Shown one piece after another: positions 9,591-50,370 of a stretch of DNA of 64,000 bases. The stretch is from contig OZ240219.1 of the NCBI GenBank assembly GCA_965197645.1, forward strand, positions 352,001-416,000. The letters are read 5' to 3'. Source of the DNA: Dehalococcoidia bacterium (GTDB taxonomy: Bacteria; Chloroflexota; Dehalococcoidia; Plut-88900). Made by a program: the position numbers and the translations under genes. Within the stretch, counting starts at the first letter, position 1. Each line of letters begins with the position of its first letter. A model generated the notes under the pieces. It saw only the letters and a program-made list of their open reading frames with translations. It did not search any database and had not been told where the DNA came from.

Positions 9591-10250
9591 TTGAAACTCG
9601 ATCTAGCATCAGTCGACCACGTGCTCAATACCACCCGGTCCGTCCGCAAGCGCCTCGACTTCACCCGACGCGTCGAGCCCGAGGTGATCGAAGAGTGTCT
9701 GGACATCGCCATCCAGGCACCCACCGGCTCAAACCGGCAGGAGTGGTTCTTCATGGTGATTACGGACGAAGAAAAACGCCGCTCCATCTCCGAGCTGTAC
9801 AAGAAGGGGTTCTTCGCCTACATCACGCCCGAGACCGACATCGGGTCGGACTTCCCTGCCGATGATCCCCGCACCGAGCAGTCGACTCGGGTACGAGACT
9901 CCGCCATCTACCTCGCCGATAACATGCACCGGGCGCCGGTGTTCATCATCACGTGCATCGAAGGGCGCGTATCGGGCGGCAACGAGTCGGCCGCGGGGTT
10001 GATGGGCTCGATCTTGCCGGCCACATGGTCGTTGATGCTGGCCCTGCGATCCCGGGGTCTGGGCTCCGCCTGGACCACTCTCCACCTGCCCTACGAGCAG
10101 GAGACCGCCGAAATCCTAGGCATCCCGGACACCGTCAGCCAAGCGGCCCTCTTGCCCGTGGCCTACTTCACCGGTGAGGACTTCAAACCCGCCAGGCGTA
10201 TTCCCGCCAGAGAGGTGACCTACTGGGACTCGTGGGGAGCCAAGCGCTAG
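9591..10250 (+). CDS. Nitroreductase family protein
   Basis: TTRSVRKRL, QAPTGSNRQEW, LALRSRGLGSAWT; TTG start behind GAGGAGG. Confidence 0.9.
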   Translation: MKLDLASVDHVLNTTRSVRKRLDFTRRVEPEVIEECLDIAIQAPTGSNRQEWFFMVITDEEKRRSISELYKKGFFAYITPETDIGSDFPADDPRTEQSTRVRDSAIYLADNMHRAPVFIITCIEGRVSGGNESAAGLMGSILPATWSLMLALRSRGLGSAWTTLHLPYEQETAEILGIPDTVSQAALLPVAYFTGEDFKPARRIPAREVTYWDSWGAKR

Positions 10251-11206
10251 CGCTTGATCCTCTCGATGAAGAGAGCCAGGAACCGGTTGGAGCTCACCCC
10301 CATGGCAACGCGACAGTTGGGAGGCGTCTTCACCTTGCCGCTGTTACCGAAAGGCACGGTCATACCCTGGGTCAGGCCCTCTTTGGTCTCGACGTAGAGC
10401 CTCATCGGTTCCAACCGCACCAACGACGGATCGATGACCGCTCCGACCGCGAGGGGATCGTGCAGGTAGGCGCCATCCATCCCAGCCTGGTTCCGCTCGA
10501 AGTCCATGTAGAGCCGGGAGCAGTCCACCACGAACTGGGGCACGGTGTTCGGGCCCGTCGCCAGCTCCCTCTCCGCCAGCACTCGTAACAATTTCGCTTT
10601 GTGGGTCACGTCCAGCGGCACCATCGTCACCGGGACGCAGAACCCAAACACCACGTCCTGGGCCTCCGGGTCTACGTAGGTGTTGAACTCGGCAGCCCCG
10701 AGGGGAGGAGCGTTGCCGGGTTCGATGATGGCGCCTCCCATGATGACGATCTCCTTGGCCTGGGACATGGCTATAGGGTGGGCCTGGACCGCCTTGGCGA
10801 CGTTGGTGACGGGGCCCGTAGCGATTATCGTCACCTCCCCCGAGTGCTCCTCGACCAACTCGGCCATCAGTTCCACTCCCGTTTTCTCCGAGACGTGCTT
10901 CCAGTCCAGCGGGGGAAAGTAGTCGTCCCCCAGGTCGCCGAGGCCATCGTTCCCGTGGACGCTGGAGGCGAAAAAAGCCTCCTTCACCAGCGGCCTGTCC
11001 TCCCCTCTGGCAACCATGGGCGGGTTCTCGATCCGGAGCACGGAAAGCACCCGCAGCACGTTCTTGGTGCAGTGGTCCACGTGGGTGTTGCCGCTGACCG
11101 TGGTAATGGCCAGCACATCCAGCTCCGGCGAGTTCATAGCCAGGATTATGGCCAGCGCATCATCAACGCCGCAGTCCACGTCCAGAATTACTTTCTTTCT
11201 CTCCAT
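10247..11206 (-). CDS. Inosine/uridine-preferring nucleoside hydrolase family protein
   Basis: DVDCGVDD Ca-binding motif, VHGNDGLG, AEFN, GAYLHDP; ATG 11206 behind AGGAG. Confidence 0.92.
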   Translation of the reverse strand: MERKKVILDVDCGVDDALAIILAMNSPELDVLAITTVSGNTHVDHCTKNVLRVLSVLRIENPPMVARGEDRPLVKEAFFASSVHGNDGLGDLGDDYFPPLDWKHVSEKTGVELMAELVEEHSGEVTIIATGPVTNVAKAVQAHPIAMSQAKEIVIMGGAIIEPGNAPPLGAAEFNTYVDPEAQDVVFGFCVPVTMVPLDVTHKAKLLRVLAERELATGPNTVPQFVVDCSRLYMDFERNQAGMDGAYLHDPLAVGAVIDPSLVRLEPMRLYVETKEGLTQGMTVPFGNSGKVKTPPNCRVAMGVSSNRFLALFIERIKR

Positions 11207-11214
11207 TTCGACTC

Positions 11215-12171
11215 CTAGCTCTTCATACTGTTCAGAAACAGTCTTACGAATCTCCCCGAGTCGGCCGACATGGCCACTCGGCAGTTGGGTGGGTTGCCGA
11301 CCTTTCCGTGGCTTCGATACCGGACCGTCATGCCCCGGGTTGGCGTGTTGGTGGTGTCTACGTATATCCGGCACGGTTCAGTCTCTATGAAAGAAGGATC
11401 TATGACCGCGCCCACGGTTAGAGGGTCGTGCAGTCAGGCTCCATCGAAACCCTCCTCCTCCTTTCCGATGTCCATGTACATCCTCGAAGACTCTGCTATG
11501 AATCTGGGCACGGCGTTCTCTGCCATTCCCAGCTCCTCCATCTGTTTCCTGGATACGCAGGCCTGATAGGTCGCGTCCACGGCGACCAACGTAACCGGCA
11601 CAGTAAACCCCAGGACTATCTCCAGCGCCTCCGGGTCGACGTAGGTGTTGAAGTCCGCTATCCTCAGCGGCGGCATCACACCCATCTCGTGGATAGCGCC
11701 GGCCATTACAACAATCCCTTTGGCTTTGGACATGGCCACCGGCTCCGATTGAATAGCTCGCGCTATGTTGGTAAGCGGCCCAACCCCTATGATGGTGACC
11801 TCGCCCGGGTGCTGCTCGATCAGTCTTGGCATTAGCTCCGTTGCCGGCTGGGACGATACCAGTCCCCAGTCGAGGGGCGGATAGTAATCGTCTCCCAGGT
11901 CGCCCAGACCGTCAAACCCGTGGACGAAGTCGGCGTAAACCGGCTCTTTGACGAGGGGGCGGTCCTCGCCTCTGGCCACCACGGGAGGAGATTCCATGTC
12001 CAACAACGCCAGTATGCGGAGCACGTTCTTGGTGCAATGGTCCACGTGGACATTACCGGTAACGGTGGTAATCGCCGCCACCTCCAGTTGAGGGGAGCGC
12101 AGGGCGAGAATGATGGCCATCGCATCGTCCACTCCGGCGTCCACGTCCAGAATCACTTTCTTTCTGTCCAT
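11215..12171 (-). CDS. Nucleoside hydrolase paralog with in-frame TGA at codon 246 (11434-11436); candidate selenoprotein, alternatively a nonsense pseudogene
   Basis: ORFs 11434..12171 and 11215..11415 are in frame; read-through gives GFDGA-[TGA]-LHDPLTVGAVIDPS, 318 aa versus 319 aa for the neighbouring paralog. Confidence 0.75.
11398..11436 (-). promoter_or_regulatory. Candidate bacterial SECIS hairpin after the nucleoside hydrolase UGA
   Basis: UGA, then UCUA-ACCGU-[GGGC]-GCGGU-(CA)-UAGA; the G-initiated apical loop starts 20 nt after UGA. Confidence 0.5.
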
Positions 12172-12265
12172 GTGAGCAGTTAGCCCTCGACGTGAGTATC
12201 TGATAAATTACATCCACCCTTGGGCATAGTCAAACCTGAACGATTCAGATATCGGGAAGCAGAAG

Positions 12266-13183
12266 TTGACACGAAGACCGATAGTTGTCGCCGGAAGCAT
12301 TAATATGGACCTGGTCGTCGGCCTGGAGAGGATGCCGAGGCCGGGCGAGACGGTGATGGGGGACGACATCCGGTACATTCCCGGGGGTAAGGGCTCGAAC
12401 CAGGCCATCGCCGCCAGGCGGCTCAGCGAGGCGCCAGTCACGCTGATCGGCAAGCTGGGCCGGGACGCCTTTGGCGACGAACTGCTCGACTACCTCCAGG
12501 CCCAGGACCTGCTGCTGCAGGGGCTCACCCGGTCTGAAAAGCCCAGCGGCACGGCCATCATAACCATAGATGCTACCTCTGAGAACGCCATCGTCGTCGT
12601 ACCGGGAGCGAACTTCGATCTGACTGTCGAGGACATTGACCAGATGGAAAACACGATAGCGAGCGCCGGTGTTGCCGTCTCCCAGCTGGAGCTGTCGTTG
12701 TCCGCTACGGAGCACTTCCTGCAGGTCGCCAAGGAGAAAGGCGCAGCGACGATCCTGAACGCCGCTCCGGCACGGCAGCTTGGCCGGACCATCCTCTCCT
12801 CCGTCGACTACCTGGTGGTCAACGAGACCGAGCTGGCCTTTTTCACCGGAGGAGGAGAGCCGACGGAAGACCGCAATTTGGTGATTGCCGGGGCGAAGAA
12901 GCTCCAGGCGCAAGGCCCACCCAACGTGGTCGTTACCCTCGGCGCCAAGGGCTCGGTCACCGTCGCCGGTGACGAGGTGATCTCCATCGATGGGTTGAGA
13001 GTAAACGCGGTCGACCCCACGGGTGCGGGCGACACCTTCATCGGCGGTCTGGCAGCCAAGCTCAACGCCGGTGCCGACCTCGAGCAGGCCCTGAACTTCG
13101 CCAACCGGGCCGCAGCCCAGGCGGTGCAGCGCCTGGGCGCCAGCTCTTCCATCCCCCACCTTTCCCAGGTAGTCGGGCCATGA
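12266..13183 (+). CDS. rbsK: Ribokinase (PfkB family)
   Basis: GSINMDLV, PGGKGSNQA, VNETE, DPTGAGDTF; divergent from the nucleoside hydrolase genes. Confidence 0.9.
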   Translation: MTRRPIVVAGSINMDLVVGLERMPRPGETVMGDDIRYIPGGKGSNQAIAARRLSEAPVTLIGKLGRDAFGDELLDYLQAQDLLLQGLTRSEKPSGTAIITIDATSENAIVVVPGANFDLTVEDIDQMENTIASAGVAVSQLELSLSATEHFLQVAKEKGAATILNAAPARQLGRTILSSVDYLVVNETELAFFTGGGEPTEDRNLVIAGAKKLQAQGPPNVVVTLGAKGSVTVAGDEVISIDGLRVNAVDPTGAGDTFIGGLAAKLNAGADLEQALNFANRAAAQAVQRLGASSSIPHLSQVVGP

Positions 13184-13205
13184 CACCATCCTTACAATCG
13201 GGATT

Positions 13206-14465
13206 ATGAACCTCGACTCCTCCATGGGTCCTTACCGGGCCTTGGACCTGACCGAAGGCGGATTCAACTGGTGCGGCAAAGTGCTGGCGGACCTGGGTGC
13301 GGACGTCATCAAGATCGAGCCGCCCAGGGGAAGCGACACCCGATACCGCGCTCCCTTCTACAACGATGAACCACACCCCGAGCGGAGCCTCTTCTGGTAC
13401 GCCTACTGTGTCAACAAGCGGGGCATCACCCTCAACCTGGAAACCGGCGACGGCCGAGAGCTGTTCAAACGGCTCGTTGCCGGTGCGGACTTCGTTCTGG
13501 AGTCCTTCCCGCCGGGCTACATGGCCGGCCTGGGCCTCGGCTACGAAGATCTGTCGAGGATCAACCCGCGTCTGGTGGTGACATCCATGACCCCTTACGG
13601 TCAGACCGGGCCCCATTCCCTTCACAAGACAACGGACATGGTGTCCTGGTCCATGGGCGGCATGCAGTACCTGACCGGCGAAGAGGACCGCGCCCCGCTT
13701 CGCATAACCTTTCCCCAGGCGGAGTTTCTGTGTGGCGCCCAGGCCTACGCCGGTTCGATGACTGCCTTCTGGCACCGGCAGAACACCGGCGAGGGCCAGC
13801 ACGTCGACGTCTCCACCCAGGTTGCCGTCATCTGGACCCTCATGAACGCCACCGCTTACCCCAAGCTGCACAAGGTAAATGTCGAGCGGGCCGGGATCTA
13901 CCATGGCGCCGGTCTGGTCGAGATTCGTACCGTCTTTCCTTGCAAGGACGGCTACATCGCCCTGACATTCGGAGGCGGACTGTTTGGGCCGTCGACTTCC
14001 GCCCTCGTCCGGTGGATGGACGAGGAGAGCATGGCGCCCGGTTTCATGGTGGAGCGGGACTGGCCGGCCTGGGACTTCGCCGATATCGCAGGTCAGGGAG
14101 AAAAGGGGGCGGCCGAGGTCCGGGCCATCGAAGGACACATGACCCGGTTCTTTGGCACCAAGACCAAGTCCCAGCTGTACCAACGCGCCTTCAACGATCG
14201 GATCCTCATCGGCCCTTGCAACAACGTCAAGGACATATGGGAGTATGAGCAGCTTCGGGCGCGGGGCTTCTATATCGAGGTGCATCACCCGGAGCTCCAG
14301 GTCTCCCTACCCTATCTGGGGCCCTACGTCAAGCTCGGTGAGTCACCCATTCAGATCCGACGTCCGGCGCCTGGGATAGGGGAACACAACGATGAGATAT
14401 TCGGCGACGAGCTGGGCCTGACCCGTGATGAACTGCTGCAGCTCGAAGGGATAGGAGCGGTCTAG
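13206..14465 (+). CDS. Class III CoA transferase (CaiB/BaiF), probable non-catalytic subunit
   Basis: LADLGADVIKIEPP, NKRGITLNL, TPYGQTGP; the catalytic Asp position reads PQAEF. Confidence 0.88.
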   Translation: MNLDSSMGPYRALDLTEGGFNWCGKVLADLGADVIKIEPPRGSDTRYRAPFYNDEPHPERSLFWYAYCVNKRGITLNLETGDGRELFKRLVAGADFVLESFPPGYMAGLGLGYEDLSRINPRLVVTSMTPYGQTGPHSLHKTTDMVSWSMGGMQYLTGEEDRAPLRITFPQAEFLCGAQAYAGSMTAFWHRQNTGEGQHVDVSTQVAVIWTLMNATAYPKLHKVNVERAGIYHGAGLVEIRTVFPCKDGYIALTFGGGLFGPSTSALVRWMDEESMAPGFMVERDWPAWDFADIAGQGEKGAAEVRAIEGHMTRFFGTKTKSQLYQRAFNDRILIGPCNNVKDIWEYEQLRARGFYIEVHHPELQVSLPYLGPYVKLGESPIQIRRPAPGIGEHNDEIFGDELGLTRDELLQLEGIGAV

Positions 14466-14468
14466 CTT

Positions 14469-15731
14469 TTGCCACAGCGAACAGCGTTTGAAAACATCAG
14501 GGTGCTGGACTTCACCTGGGTCGGTGTGGGGCCCATAACCACCAAGTACCTGGCGGACCACGGCGCAACGGTTCTGCGGGTGGAGTCGGCGTCCCGACCA
14601 GACCTGCTCCGCACCCTGGCACCTTTCAAGGACGGCGTGCCCGGCATCAATCGGAGCCAGTTCGCCGCCAACTTCAACACCAACAAGCTGAACCTGGGCC
14701 TCGATATGTCAAAGTCCCAGGCTAGAGAGCTGATACGGCGCATCATCCGCCTGTGGCAACCCGACATCGTCGCCGAGAGCTTTACCCCCAAGGTAATGCG
14801 CAACTGGGATCTGGACTACGAGCACGTGAAGGAGCTCAAGCCCGACGTAGTCTATTTCAGCGCCTGTCAGCAGGGTCAGACCGGCCCCTACTCCAGCTAC
14901 GCCGGTTATGGAGAGCTGGCTGCCGCCATGGCCGGCTACTACCACATCACCGGGTGGCCCGATCGGGACCTGATCGCTCCGTACGGCGCCTACTCCGACT
15001 TCGTCAACCCGCCCAACGCCTTCGGGGCCATAGTGGCCGCCCTGGAGTACCGACGCCGCACGGGCAAGGGGCAGCATATCGACCTCGCTCAGCTGGAGTG
15101 CGCCGCACATTTCATGGCTCCAGCCCTGATGGACTACGCTTCCAGCGGCAGGATCATGGCAAGGAACGGCAACCGGGACGATACCTTCGTGCCCCACGGC
15201 GTGTACCCCTGCAAGGAGAGCCCTTCAGACGACCCGGAAGTGCCCAGCCAGAGCGGGCACTGGTGTGTCATCGCCGTCTCATCAGACCAGGAATGGCGGG
15301 ACCTTTGTGAAATCATGGGCAACCCGGACTGGTGCCTGGAAGACCGGTTCGCCACCTTCTCGGCTCGGCGACAGCACGAGGACGACCTGGACCGCCTGAT
15401 CGGCCGGTGGACCTCCCGGTTCGAGGCAAAGGAGTTGATGGAGATGTGTCAGAGAGCCGGCGTTCCCTCGGGAGTGGTGCAGAGCCAGACTCAGCTGTGG
15501 GCCGACCCTCAGCTAAAGCATCAGGAGTACTTCCGGTGGCTGGACCACGTCGAGTGCGGTCCCATGCCCTACGACGGCCTCCAGTTCCAGCTTTCCAAAA
15601 CTCCCGGCGAGCATCTCAACGCCCATGCCCTCATCGGTCAGCACAACGAGATGGTGCTCAAGGAGTTCATCGGCCTGACCGACGAGGAGATCGGCCAGCT
15701 GGTGATCGACGAGGTACTGGAGACCTCCTAG
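14469..15731 (+). CDS. Class III CoA transferase (CaiB/BaiF), probable catalytic subunit
   Basis: VLDFTWVGVGP, LADHGATVLRVES, GQTGPY, AYSDF (Asp retained), TGKGQHID. Confidence 0.9.
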   Translation: MPQRTAFENIRVLDFTWVGVGPITTKYLADHGATVLRVESASRPDLLRTLAPFKDGVPGINRSQFAANFNTNKLNLGLDMSKSQARELIRRIIRLWQPDIVAESFTPKVMRNWDLDYEHVKELKPDVVYFSACQQGQTGPYSSYAGYGELAAAMAGYYHITGWPDRDLIAPYGAYSDFVNPPNAFGAIVAALEYRRRTGKGQHIDLAQLECAAHFMAPALMDYASSGRIMARNGNRDDTFVPHGVYPCKESPSDDPEVPSQSGHWCVIAVSSDQEWRDLCEIMGNPDWCLEDRFATFSARRQHEDDLDRLIGRWTSRFEAKELMEMCQRAGVPSGVVQSQTQLWADPQLKHQEYFRWLDHVECGPMPYDGLQFQLSKTPGEHLNAHALIGQHNEMVLKEFIGLTDEEIGQLVIDEVLETS

Positions 15732-16651
15732 CTGAGGACGGGTCTGGGCAGCTGCTCTGCCAGCGTGGCGATGTGCTCCAGACCGGTCCCGCAACACCCA
15801 CCTATGATCTGCACCCCCATCTCCACCCAGGTCTTACAATGCTCCAGGTAGTCCTCCGGCGATACCGGGTTATCGAAGACCCATTCCGGCCGTTTCCACG
15901 TTCCCAAGTTGGGGTAGGCCCCCAGGGAACCATCCCATCTCTCCTTCACGATCTCTAGGCCCGGGGCAGTATTCTCGATCTCGGAGTGCATCACCGTTAC
16001 CGCCGACCCTCCCAGCGACAACAGGGCATCCAGGCACTTGGCGAAGGGGATGTTTTTTTCAATCTCGTCCATTATCAGATCTCCGGACTCGGCGCGCTGG
16101 ATGGTGAACCCTATCCACACCGGCAGGCCGGTGGAGAGAGCGGCCTGGGTGCAGAGGGTGGCCTGCTCTATGTCCGTCATCATCTCCAGCACGAGCAGTT
16201 CGGCTCCCGCTTCGGCCAGGATGTCGGCCTGCTCGTGGTAGAAATCCTTCCCGTCATCAGCAGCCGACAGGGACGGCACTTTAGTGGCCATGGTACCCCC
16301 GTAGGTCGACATCGATCCTGCGACGTACACCGGCCTGTCCCCGGCGACGTTGTCCCGCGCCTCCTGGGCCAGCTTCACCGCCAGTGCGTTCAGCTCCCTG
16401 GTCTCGTCGCCCAGACCCGCGTCCGCCAGGGCGGGACGGGCCGAGGAGAAGGAGTTGGCGGTAACAATGTCGGCGCCGGCCCGGATGTAGTCCTCGTGGA
16501 TCTCCCTCACAGTGTCCGGGTGAGTCTTCAGAGCTTTGCCGGACCACGAGGCGTGATCCATGGGTACGCCTCTCGCCTGGAGCTCAGAGCCGGTGGCCCC
16601 GTCCAGCAGGATGATTTCTCCGTTCCTTAACCTCTCGTCTATACTACCCAT
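15728..16651 (-). CDS. Homocysteine S-methyltransferase family protein
   Basis: LLDGATGSEL, HEDYIRAGADI, GAYPN, IIGGCCG. Confidence 0.9.
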   Translation of the reverse strand: MGSIDERLRNGEIILLDGATGSELQARGVPMDHASWSGKALKTHPDTVREIHEDYIRAGADIVTANSFSSARPALADAGLGDETRELNALAVKLAQEARDNVAGDRPVYVAGSMSTYGGTMATKVPSLSAADDGKDFYHEQADILAEAGAELLVLEMMTDIEQATLCTQAALSTGLPVWIGFTIQRAESGDLIMDEIEKNIPFAKCLDALLSLGGSAVTVMHSEIENTAPGLEIVKERWDGSLGAYPNLGTWKRPEWVFDNPVSPEDYLEHCKTWVEMGVQIIGGCCGTGLEHIATLAEQLPRPVLS

Positions 16652-16729
16652 GTCCGGTCCTCCAGCCCCGAGCAATTAACCTGCTCTCGTTAACGTCAGG
16701 GGCTGTATTGTAAAGTAGTTCACCAGAAC

Positions 16730-18673
16730 ATGTCACACCCCGCGACGAATCGAACATCCAACATCACGAACGACCTGGCTTACCTGGGCCTCGGCGCCGT
16801 CACGGTCGTATTCGGCCTCCAGGTACTGCGCATGTTCATCGTCCTCATGGGGGTCTACCTCCGCCAGATCGAGGATGTTGGCACCGTCACGCTGGGCGTT
16901 GTCGCGCTCCTCGTCTTTGCATCCGGGTTACTCGCTCCCATGGTGCCTCGTGTCCTGGGTCAACGGGATGCGCTCATCCTGACCGCAGGAGGCCTGGGGT
17001 TGGTGCGACTTATCGAGCAACTGGTATCCTCGCCACCTGCAGATGTCGCACTGTCCATCGCCGGCACGGTGCTGTTCCTGTGGTTCATCCCCACCTTTGT
17101 TCAGGACCTTCAAGCTAGCGATTCCAGCGGGCGCAGCCGCCTTGCTTTTCCGATTCTGATCGGTATCTCGTCGGACACTGCCATCAAGGGGATGTTCGGA
17201 ACCATGGACACGTCGTGGGTTGGCGGCGTCGCTCCCCACGTTCTCATAGCGGTCCTGGTGGTGTGCCAGTGGGCTCTTCTGCTGCGATCTGCAATCCGCC
17301 GCCCGGAGGAGCCCGGGTCACACTCCCCGGTTAGTGCAGGCTCTCTACTAGCGTTGGGTCCGGCCATCTCCCTGGAGTTCATGCTGTTCCAGAACATGGC
17401 CCAGCAGACGGCCATCATCGATTGGGCCCAGCCAGCCGTTTTCGCCTGGATAATGGCAGCCAACCTGGCCGGAATCGTAGCTGCCGCCGCCCTACTCCCG
17501 AACTCAACCCGCATCATCCCATATGGTCTCTCAGTACTGGGTCCATTGCTGGTTCTCCTGGTCATCGAGCAGCACTCCGGCCTTCCAGCCGCCCTGGCGC
17601 TGCTGGCGGGGCAGGTCATCCTATCCCTCTTCATCGCCGCCGCCTTGGCCGGCCGTTCCCAGACAGAGGCAACGAGCTTCGGTAGGGCGTCGACGTGGAG
17701 CGGGGCCGGGATGATTCTCTTCGTGCTGTTCATCTTCGCCTACTACGCCTCTTACGACGTCAACCTGTTGGTCCCCGGCAAGGCTGTGCCGCCCATCGCC
17801 GCAGCCCTGGTTGTCCTGCCTGTTCTGATCGTGAATCTGCGACCACACGGTAATGCACTGCCTGCCAGCTTCAAGTGGGTCTTCCTGGTTCCCGCTGTAA
17901 TCCTGCTGTTTCTACCTCTGGCCCGCTTCATGACGTGGGAAGAAGTATCGGCGTCGGAGGGGGACGGATTACCGGTTAGGGTGATGTCCTACAACATCCA
18001 CCAGGGTTTCGATGTCGAAGGCGTGCTGGGCATGGAGGCTCTGGCCCGTGTCATCGAGGCGCAAGACCCCGATATCGTGGCGCTGCAAGAGGTGTCCCGT
18101 GGATGGGTCATCAACGGCTCAACCGATACCCTGGTATGGCTCTCCCAGCGGCTGGAGATGGACTACGTGTGGGGACCTGCCGCCGACTCTACCTGGGGAA
18201 ATGCGGTCCTCTCTCGATTTCCTGTGTTGGACTCTCAGAACATATCCATGCCCAACAACGATGAGATCCGCTTGGACCGAGGGTTTCTAGACGTAGATAT
18301 AAACATTGGCAATGGAGAGGTATTGAGGGTGGTGGCGACCCATCTTCACGCCGGGGACACCGAGGGTGTCTTTCGAGAACCTCAGATTCGGGCCATCACC
18401 GGTTTCTGGAACGGCGCCGACCGGACGGTCCTGCTGGGCGACCTCAATGCCCAGCCCGGCGACCCTGAGATGCTTCACCTGGCCGAAGCCGGAATGTTGG
18501 ACGCTTTTCTCATCTCCGGCACCTCGGGCCCGGGCTTCACCTCCGAGGCTGACGACCCCCGCCAGCGCATCGATTACATCTGGGTCTCACCGGACCTGAA
18601 CGCCGGGGATTTCGTAGTTACCCAGAGCCTGGCCTCCGACCATTTCCCAGTAACAGCTACCCTGTTCCGCTAG
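16730..18673 (+). CDS. Polytopic membrane protein with C-terminal endonuclease/exonuclease/phosphatase (EEP) domain
   Basis: About 400 aa of hydrophobic helices, then MSYNIHQG, DIVALQEV, GNAVLSRFP, GDLN, RIDYIW, SDH. Confidence 0.88.
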   Translation: MSHPATNRTSNITNDLAYLGLGAVTVVFGLQVLRMFIVLMGVYLRQIEDVGTVTLGVVALLVFASGLLAPMVPRVLGQRDALILTAGGLGLVRLIEQLVSSPPADVALSIAGTVLFLWFIPTFVQDLQASDSSGRSRLAFPILIGISSDTAIKGMFGTMDTSWVGGVAPHVLIAVLVVCQWALLLRSAIRRPEEPGSHSPVSAGSLLALGPAISLEFMLFQNMAQQTAIIDWAQPAVFAWIMAANLAGIVAAAALLPNSTRIIPYGLSVLGPLLVLLVIEQHSGLPAALALLAGQVILSLFIAAALAGRSQTEATSFGRASTWSGAGMILFVLFIFAYYASYDVNLLVPGKAVPPIAAALVVLPVLIVNLRPHGNALPASFKWVFLVPAVILLFLPLARFMTWEEVSASEGDGLPVRVMSYNIHQGFDVEGVLGMEALARVIEAQDPDIVALQEVSRGWVINGSTDTLVWLSQRLEMDYVWGPAADSTWGNAVLSRFPVLDSQNISMPNNDEIRLDRGFLDVDINIGNGEVLRVVATHLHAGDTEGVFREPQIRAITGFWNGADRTVLLGDLNAQPGDPEMLHLAEAGMLDAFLISGTSGPGFTSEADDPRQRIDYIWVSPDLNAGDFVVTQSLASDHFPVTATLFR

Positions 18674-49041: not shown

Positions 49042-50370
49042 TTAGACCGGGAGTTCCGATCGATCCTTGACGGTAGGCCCATCGACCGGCTGGGTCAGCA
49101 TCCGCACCGCAGCCCTCAGCAGATCGATTCGCCAGGCCTGCTCATGCTCTGAGGTCAGCTTCGGGTCGCCCAGTGGATGATGGAATCTCCCCTCGGTTCT
49201 GAAAATCCGGTTGGCGCCGACCCTCTCGGCGATGCTGACGAGGGCGGTGATAAGCACCACGGGGATACCGGCCCGTTCGATCTCCTTGGCTAACGTAGCG
49301 CCGCTACGGGTTCCCGTGCCTCAGGTGGCGGTTAGAATCGCCGCCCGGACGTCCCGTGCCTTCATGTCCTCGGCCATTTCGCGCCCGATCCGGGTCATCG
49401 TCTTGATGTTGGCCATGTTCCCGGTGGTGACGTAGTAGTGGTCGGATAGCCGGCTGATGACGCCTGTTTTCTCCAGGAACCGAGCGGCATCGAGAGGCAC
49501 GGTACGATCGGGTGCATCGTTGGTGCCGCTGGTGTCACAGCCGCCGTGCCACGCCTCGTAGTCGCCCCGCCTTAGACTGTTGAGACCCTTGATCGGATAC
49601 TTGAGCCACTTGGACGCGTTCCAGGTCTCCAGCCTGTCGGGGTTGCCTGAAGGCACGAGACCTGACTCGGTGACCAGGGCCACAAGGCTGCGGCTGAGGT
49701 CTGCTATCTCAGGCGCCGGGGGTACGTTGTCGAAATCGGGAATTGGCAGCTCTGTGCGGTACGAACGTCCATCAAGCTTCGCCAGCAGCATGTTCGCGGC
49801 CCGCTCGGCGGCGCCCTGCTTCACCCTTACGTTTCGCCGGACGCCCCGGGGGAGGTACCCCTCGTCATCGGCCGGTCCGATCTCAACACCGCGGCCGAGT
49901 TTAACGACGAAGTCGGCCAGCCTGGGTAGAGCGTCGTTCATCGATGCTGCCGTCGGGCTGGTGGGCAGGATGTAGACGTCCTCACGGAACAGCTCGACGC
50001 CCGGGTTATTGACGTTCATCGCCGTCACCGCGGGCTTGCCTCGTTGCTGCAAGGCTTGAGCAATCGCTCCGCAGGCCGTGCCATAACGACCCGAGTTGAA
50101 GGCGGGTCCGGCCGCCAGCACGTCGGCAGGATGAGAGTCGGCCAGGGCTATGAGTCGACTTGTCGCCTCATCCTGGTTCTCGATGAAGTAGTTGTCGCCG
50201 CAGACCAGCGTCCCGGTGATAGTGGCCCGGTCGGCAAGATGCTTGGCCAGGCCGACGCCGGGCCCGACGGGGCCGGGACGGTACTGGGGAGGAGCGTCCG
50301 CATGGTCCTCGCCTCCTATGCCGCCGAAGAACTGGTTTACGTAGTGGATAACGGTGATTTCGTGATTCAT
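49042..50370 (-). CDS. Glycine/sarcosine/betaine reductase selenoprotein B-like (GrdB family); Sec at codon 350 (TGA 49321-49323)
   Basis: HYVNQFFGGIGGE, AGPAFNSGRYG, AILTAT-[TGA]-GTGTRSGATLAKEIERAGIPVV..VGANRI..HPLGDP; the frame continues to TAA at 49042. Confidence 0.92.
49288..49323 (-). promoter_or_regulatory. SECIS hairpin of the grdB-like gene
   Basis: UGA GGC ACGGG AACC-CGUAGC-[GGC]-GCUACG-UU A GCC; perfect 6-bp stem, G-initiated loop 18 nt after UGA. Confidence 0.7.

Follow-up and report, generated by a model that had tools for sequence, protein, structure and literature searches.

The best solved relative of the gene described here is the pyrimidine nucleoside hydrolase RihA/YbeK of E. 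coli (PDB 3G5I and 1YOE), a group I (IU/CU) enzyme whose calcium, ribose and O5' ligands are described in PMC2898832. In the group III nucleoside hydrolases of metazoa such as C. elegans and X. laevis, which are not selenoproteins, a Cys replaces the catalytic His directly before the last Ca-binding Asp, and mutagenesis implicates this Cys in activation of the leaving group (PMC8910321). Most known bacterial selenoproteins, according to the account in PMC1794560, arose from Cys in thiol-redox motifs. We analysed a window of 64,000 nucleotides (nt) from a Dehalococcoidia bacterium (assembly GCA_965197645.1, contig OZ240219.1, positions 352,001 to 416,000), whose genome, here called G000, is a single contig of 3.21 Mb and belongs to a sponge-associated Chloroflexota lineage. 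Positions 11215..12171 of this window, on the minus strand, hold a paralog of the IU-nucleoside hydrolases with an in-frame UGA at codon 246 (11434..11436, minus strand), where relatives have Tyr and E. coli RihA has Pro238. Judging from sequence comparisons, this gene (the TGA copy) appears to be functional and is probably read through, giving a lineage-specific, Ca-dependent IU-nucleoside hydrolase paralog. To the fuller reading, in which the conserved UGA246 is read through in a functional paralog and the residue inserted is most likely selenocysteine (Sec), we would give an even chance.

The whole read-through frame comprises 318 codons and a terminal TAG (11215-11217), and TGA 246 is the only internal stop in it. 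Its product matches Pfam PF01156 (IU_nuc_hydro) with 273.5 bits, the cut-off being 34.2, and residues 6-309 align to positions 1-296 of the 297 in the model. The 245 codons ahead of the UGA (the N-part; 11437..12171, minus strand), which encode DVDAGVDD, Asn40, His84 and Thr134, are the product called by gene callers, and alone they score 212.3 bits on model positions 1-232. The 72 codons after it (11218..11433, minus strand) encode His248-Asp249 (11425-11430) and the C-terminal strands and helix, and by themselves score 44.8 bits (E=1.7e-11) on positions 235-296, which is also above the cut-off. As the two parts cover positions 1-232 and 235-296 of the same model, exactly one codon is affected. 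An intact tandem paralog of 319 residues with Tyr at the column lies 8 nt downstream (10247..11206, minus strand; ATG at 11204-11206), and its ribosome-binding site AGGAG (11212-11216) shares bases with the TAG that ends the TGA copy. The two genes agree in length, operon and Pfam model coverage, and are 62% identical upstream of the column and 57% identical downstream of it. The original prediction, made from the letters of this stretch, had described a single in-frame TGA in GFDGA-*-LHDP, two codons ahead of the His-Asp pair, a read-through length of 318 against 319 residues, Tyr in the paralog, a downstream part with no further lesion and a TAG that overlaps the ribosome-binding site of the next gene, and all of this is borne out.

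RihA aligns to the read-through product over residues 6-317 (E=1.3e-50). Like RihA, the TGA copy has the DxDxxxDD fingerprint, Asn40, His84, the backbone ligand Thr134, Asn175 and the His-Asp pair; the RihA ligands that are kept, with roles as given in PMC2898832, are Asp10 and Asp15 of the fingerprint, Thr124 (here Thr134), Asn166 (here Asn175) and His240-Asp241 (here His248-Asp249). The fingerprint itself, DVDAGVDD at residues 9-16, is invariant in our 40-sequence alignment (A3) and likewise in three strain sequences, the fourth, P0124, starting too late to include it. The His248-Asp249 pair is found in 39/39 homologs and, being encoded after the UGA, is present in the protein solely upon read-through. 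Unlike RihA, which has Pro238, Asn158 and Glu164, the TGA copy has UGA246, Val165 (11677..11679, minus strand) and Asp173 (11653..11655, minus strand). The Asn and the Glu are ligands of the ribose O5' in RihA (PMC2898832), and each is present in 39/39 homologs in the alignment. Both replacements are common to all four strain sequences, and the tandem paralog and the same-family orthologs keep Tyr, Asn and Glu, unlike the TGA copy.

The stop at codon 246 is real, shared and old. The truncated product of 245 residues occurs as five records in the protein collection, every one ending in ...GFDGA, and these come from contigs of 3.21 Mb (the source genome), 1.02 Mb, 3.15 Mb and, in two cases, about 16 kb, representing at least four assemblies. 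The four other records are 95, 90, 95 and 91% identical to that of the source genome, and the paralog records of these contigs cluster in parallel, at 90-95% identity. An independent contig assembly of sequencing run X1 contains all of the 110 sampled words (a fraction of 1.00), all words were likewise found in run X2, and part of the stretch was found in 11 of the 12 runs listed, from 5 studies; one run that has a small share of it bears the label of a sponge metatranscriptome. The original prediction had allowed that the TGA might be unique to one assembly. It is not, as the same stop is present in four other records and X1 holds every sampled word, and on these grounds a sequencing or assembly error is ruled out. 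A contig of 9,890 nt from run X3 spans positions 10200-12300 with 135 substitutions and 0 gaps; when applied to the paralog, 39 X3 variants among those listed give the protein record P0127 at 119/119 residues, which identifies X3 with the strain that gave the 1.02-Mb contig; on that contig the TGA gene is represented by the 245-residue record P0123.

Three further observations were made on these runs. The divergence of X3 is uneven, with 39 substitutions in 355 bases (11%) at positions 10298-10652 and 96 in 1746 bases (5.5%) in the rest of 10200-12300, a pattern suggestive of inter-strain recombination inside the paralog. In X10, a run of a sponge metatranscriptome, a contig of 152 nt covers positions 12027-12178 and differs at one site from the 5' end of the TGA copy; this is too little to call expression. 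High-depth short contigs of three runs match the 68 bases of positions 11858-11925 alone, with 7 differences and 2 gaps, and probably stem from hydrolases of other organisms, whose VHGxDGLGD region is conserved.

A stop that is shared in this way could be a nonsense mutation in a redundant duplicate, common to the strains by descent, in which case the gene would be a pseudogene. An intact paralog does adjoin it, the TGA copy alone lacks the conserved Asn and has the altered Glu, the two base changes that lead from Tyr to TGA are within reach of decay, and arithmetic from composition gives a chance of about 0.1 that a frame of 72 codons stays open at 61% G+C. The differences among strains are, however, not those of a decaying gene. 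When the four strains are compared, the N-part of the TGA copy is variable at 33 of 240 columns and the intact paralog of the same assemblies at 29 of 240. The columns that vary are the ones that are variable in the family (mean conservation 0.513 versus 0.681, permutation P=0.00025), and only 4 of the 89 highly conserved N-part columns vary among strains. Silent divergence between strains is substantial, since codons 185-303 of the paralog next door show 27 synonymous and 7 replacement codon changes in the X3 strain. Because all of the strain sequences compared already bear the stop, the constraint on the N-part acted after the stop arose, and a neutrally decaying pseudogene is therefore unlikely. 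The one insertion seen, of a single codon in the TGA copy of one strain, is in frame, and X3 has no insertions or deletions across the gene.

The phylogeny also argues against recent decay. A tree of 24 sequences made with FastTree puts the paralog in one clade with the same-family orthologs, where it groups with the single-copy orthologs of related genera, and leaves the TGA copy outside that clade on a separate branch of length 0.445; support is weak (0.17-0.85). The root-to-tip lengths of the TGA copy and the paralog are about 0.47 and 0.48, in that order. On these comparisons the TGA copy is an old, normally evolving paralog and not a recently broken duplicate.

Constraint is also visible in the part after the UGA. 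The ratio of nonsynonymous to synonymous divergence (dN/dS) against the paralog is about 0.2 on either side of the TGA, with dN 0.377 and dS 1.86 downstream and dN 0.207 and dS 1.12 over the first 110 codons. A downstream dS of this size between the copies rules out gene conversion from the paralog as the process that kept the downstream piece intact. With three outgroups, the changes specific to the TGA copy and to the paralog number 33/22, 27/24 and 32/19 upstream of the TGA and 11/9, 10/10 and 10/6 downstream, and lineage-specific changes are not commoner downstream than upstream. A search with the 72-residue piece as query yielded a single protein, P0132, which has 66 residues, comes from a contig of 601 nt and starts at the position of GTG 11415-11413. 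This GTG (11413..11415, minus strand) is the first start codon 3' of the UGA and in the source genome opens an open reading frame (ORF) of 66 residues at 11215-11415. P0132 is identical to the post-stop piece of the TGA copy at 48/65 residues and to the paralog at 30/65, and it is therefore an ortholog from a more distant lineage. Its differences from the TGA copy are conservative, 10 of the 17 being BLOSUM62-positive (P=0.009 in 5000 neutral simulations, or 0.006 if freedom from stops is also required), and they shun family-conserved columns (0.410 versus 0.634, P=0.00015), with 1 of 15 highly conserved ones changed. This pattern again speaks against a pseudogene, which we consider very unlikely. 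P0132 was the sole close relative in a search for short-fragment proteins (7 proteins of 25 candidates), and the exact 66-residue ORF of the source genome was not found in the protein collection. Contig searches for relatives returned two loci in metagenomes (61%, partial, and 33%) and one in genomes (57%, in a Tyr-type metagenome-assembled genome of Chloroflexota). By its pattern of substitution, the post-stop piece looks translated.

Translation of that piece need not mean read-through, as the UGA could be a true stop in a gene that still works. The N-terminal fragment of 245 residues would then function alone, or together with a C-terminal fragment of 66 residues re-initiated at the GTG 18 nt downstream, maybe as a non-catalytic partner of the paralog. 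Gene callers give exactly 245 residues, and a 66-residue ORF from the same GTG in another lineage; loss of an Asn kept by 39/39 homologs would fit a protein that no longer needs catalysis, and the chance level of the hairpin discussed below would fit as well. Yet the truncated product would be without the His that donates the proton, without the Asp that is the third Ca ligand, and without the strands at the C-terminus that serve the central sheet and oligomerisation (PMC2898832, PMC8910321), strands which in nucleoside hydrolases complete the central sheet (PMC8910321), and the N-part retains every Ca and ribose ligand but the two for O5'. No Shine-Dalgarno-like purine run was found upstream of GTG 11413-11415 (CCCTCTAACC). 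Furthermore, the six codons from the UGA to the GTG encode LHDPLT, and the paralog, which has five of these residues as well, specifies three of them by other codons; that codons which would go untranslated in a split gene are kept with synonymous differences is hard to explain under translation restart at the GTG. We regard a split or truncated product as unlikely.

Read-through by Sec insertion requires an organism that decodes Sec, and the original prediction was right that this one does. Among the 50 tRNAs found in the genome, tRNA-SeC(tca) is the sole one cognate to UGA, and the remaining machinery is represented by SelA (449.1 bits), SelB (wing domain, 73.3 bits, in a frame of 621 residues) and a SelD of the Sec type, with U at residue 18. 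An alternative genetic code was ruled out by 746 long frames that end in TGA and by tRNA-Sec being the only UGA-cognate tRNA. Family searches that read through stops placed a TGA inside the match in 4/4 UGSC, 5/5 DSBA and 5/11 AhpC-TSA genes, while three GrdB and two GRDB-like genes run on in frame past a TGA in or adjoining the match, and a Pfam domain spans the TGA in DsrE, DUF1989, ArsC, Rdx and one CoA-transferase gene as well. Altogether at least 25 genes in the genome have a family match across or abutting a TGA.

Some of these genes deserve a remark in their own right. Every DSBA-family gene found in the genome is of the Sec form. The CoA-transferase gene (locus L041, outside the window, at G000:C1:1709612-1710487) matches PF01144 over residues 9-223 and has its TGA at residue 103, in the context KDNT-U-GIMY, and it is a candidate for a second selenoprotein of a non-redox family in the same genome. 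Within the window, the grdB-like gene has its Sec TGA at 49321-49323 on the minus strand, followed by a hairpin (49283-49320) that is a weak hit to Rfam SECIS_4 (22.9 bits, E=0.016). Near position 18589 of the window (G000:370589, minus strand) there is another in-frame TGA with a hairpin of -9.8 kcal/mol, 18 codons before it and 99 after it, which may be noise.

The UGA might also be read through with no Sec involved. Near-cognate decoding, for example by tRNA-Trp, would let a little full-length enzyme be made, its residue 246 being aromatic or of another kind. The stop context here is UGA-C, a leaky termination context in E. coli; Tyr or Phe stands at the column in 33/39 homologs, so Trp could be tolerated, and a clear selenocysteine insertion sequence (SECIS) is not seen. 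Against this, the stop persists over strains that are 5-10% apart in protein, and probably over a lineage 26% apart, though a single TGA-to-TGG change would give full expression. The genome also encodes a tRNA-Sec cognate to UGA, of which 25 genes or more make use. Read-through of this kind seems to us quite unlikely, and we infer that Sec insertion, not near-cognate decoding, takes place at the UGA.

Several observations nevertheless weigh against Sec at this position. The residues at column 246 in the 39 homologs of the alignment are Tyr in 30, Phe in 3, Cys in 2 and Thr, Pro, His and Ala in 1 each; the two homologs with Cys are distant, and the column that precedes 246 is Cys in 20/39. All 11 of the same-family genomes searched have a single stop-free copy with Tyr, and none of them carries the TGA form (0/11). 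In 401 genomes of the class, a tally that takes in the unpublished genome G243 with one stop-free row, 106 have a family match, and no other full-length match has a stop, which was seen solely in a fragment of 69 positions in G339. Among the genomes searched, the TGA form is confined to one genus-level lineage. The original prediction had named orthologs with Tyr, and never Cys or TGA, as evidence that would count against it, and the homologs come part of the way to this, with Tyr in 11/11 same-family genomes and 30/39 homologs and Cys in the 2 distant ones. Codon 246 is read as TGA in the DNA of the source genome alone, the other strains being known from the ends of their proteins, and that these lineages have TGA there and not another stop is presumed. 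P0132 was called as a complete protein of 66 residues from the GTG and not as a longer frame that reaches the contig edge, and this start of its ORF suggests that the P0132 lineage, too, may have an in-frame stop shortly before the GTG.

The surroundings of codon 246 are unlike those of the familiar cases as well. The Cys-to-Sec selenoproteins of the thiol-redox type (Prx/AhpC, DsbA-like, ArsC-like and UGSC) are like the TGA copy in their genome, in their decoding machinery and in having a conserved domain that contains the in-frame UGA. In those families, however, motifs of the type UxxC, CxxU or TxxU occur and homologs with Cys are widespread (PMC1794560), and the site at codon 246 has neither; no thiol-redox motif is present around it. 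A few known selenoprotein families without Cys homologs are mentioned in PMC1794560, GrdA being one example.

The original prediction had leaned on a hairpin 20 nt after the UGA, and as an argument for Sec this is not supported. The hairpin ACCGU-GGGC-GCGGU (11405..11418, minus strand) exists, at nt 19-32 from the U of the UGA, and is the sole SECIS candidate at the right distance, with a stem of 5 bp and -4.6 kcal/mol and a loop, GGGC, that begins 20 nt past the UGA. Following the bacterial SECIS consensus, our test required an uninterrupted stem of 4 bp or more and a loop that is 3-8 nt long, has G in its first two positions and begins at nt 17-38. A conserved G in the loop is described for bacterial SECIS elements in PMC1794560. 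By this test a hairpin at least as good is found after 14.6% of the TGAs that end genes in this genome (746 sites) and after 19.1% of those out of frame (4000 sites), which places the one at the hydrolase gene at chance level. Among the 20 Sec sites found by family, for which no hairpin filter was applied, the stem is stronger (to -11.6 kcal/mol) at 16 and weaker at 4. In the Tyr-type ortholog L005 (L046 is identical here) ACUGU-GGCA-ACGGU occupies the same place, and the pairing arises because codons for Thr-Val-Gly-Ala-Val produce it; at 2 of 13 Tyr-type sites a stronger hairpin lies elsewhere in the interval searched. An Rfam scan of positions 10000-13500 found no SECIS at the hydrolase gene and gave only four irrelevant weak hits. 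A larger hairpin at nt 25-67 after the UGA was rejected, as it is too distant and its loop has no leading G.

These results do not decide the matter against Sec. The 48-nt folding energy at the TGA copy is -13.0, which is equalled or weaker at 5 of the 20 family-found Sec sites, and the 71 nt after the UGA have a folding z of -1.58. The SECIS elements of those 20 sites have only a generic hairpin in common. With 4/20 Sec sites having a weaker hairpin and 5/20 equal or weaker folding, a weak hairpin does not exclude Sec, and the one at 11405-11418 neither supports it nor excludes it. What remains of the proposal of a Sec-containing hydrolase is a real and shared TGA, apparent selection on both sides of it, a complete Sec machinery and a large selenoproteome; neither the hairpin nor the homologs at the column add support. 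Sec is nonetheless the leading reading, the readings other than Sec holding between them a substantial minority of the probability.

If selenocysteine is indeed inserted, the gene could work as follows. The TGA copy is the first gene of a two-gene operon, and at UGA246 the arriving ribosome would meet tRNA-Sec brought by SelB, so that insertion of Sec would yield the enzyme of 318 residues. Residue 246, two positions before the proton donor His248 and the Ca ligand Asp249, may line the leaving-group pocket. Val and Asp at the O5' site might shift the substrate to a 5'-altered riboside or to another riboside, which is speculation.

The group III enzymes, as described in PMC8910321, are of interest here. 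Their active-site Cys is a precedent for a chalcogen side chain in leaving-group activation, and so for a chalcogen in a nucleoside hydrolase pocket. They have their Cys in place of the His, though, and the TGA copy keeps the His and has its UGA two residues earlier. A bolder proposal is that the TGA copy represents a new selenoprotein family with a non-redox hydrolase fold, in which Sec stands in for a clade-conserved Tyr, both 5'-OH ligands are lost, and the pocket would be retooled for a 5'-modified riboside (a 5'-deoxy, 5'-thio or 5'-seleno nucleoside), with the selenolate serving in leaving-group activation or in covalent catalysis, as may be compared with the group III Cys; we put this forward tentatively and think it rather doubtful as a whole. 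The original prediction did not know nucleoside hydrolases as selenoproteins. Our search of the full-text literature agreed in finding no selenoprotein linked to the family; the supplementary tables of selenoproteome surveys, outside that search, could list one.

Several other genes lie near the hydrolase pair. A divergent gene on the plus strand (12266..13183) encodes a PfkB-family sugar or nucleoside kinase (PF00294, 3.3e-60), and a nitroreductase gene converges on the pair from the side opposite the kinase. That the hydrolase product feeds this kinase is an idea based on gene adjacency alone. Beside the kinase, at 13206-15731 and 15728-16675, lie two tandem family III CoA-transferase genes together with a homocysteine S-methyltransferase gene on the minus strand.

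To our knowledge, nearly all known bacterial selenoproteins are oxidoreductases of the thiol type, in which Sec takes the place of a redox Cys. Sec in the Ca-dependent active site of a glycosidase-type enzyme, where it replaces a Tyr, would, if true, widen the uses that enzymes make of selenium. It would also mean that real cases escape searches in which a strong SECIS and a homolog with Cys are demanded. If the UGA is instead read through without Sec, a functional read-through of UGA conserved for so long in a bacterial enzyme gene would be unusual in itself. The sponge-associated Chloroflexota lineage studied here, which has a TGA-bearing CoA-transferase gene as well, may be good ground in which to look for non-canonical selenoproteins.

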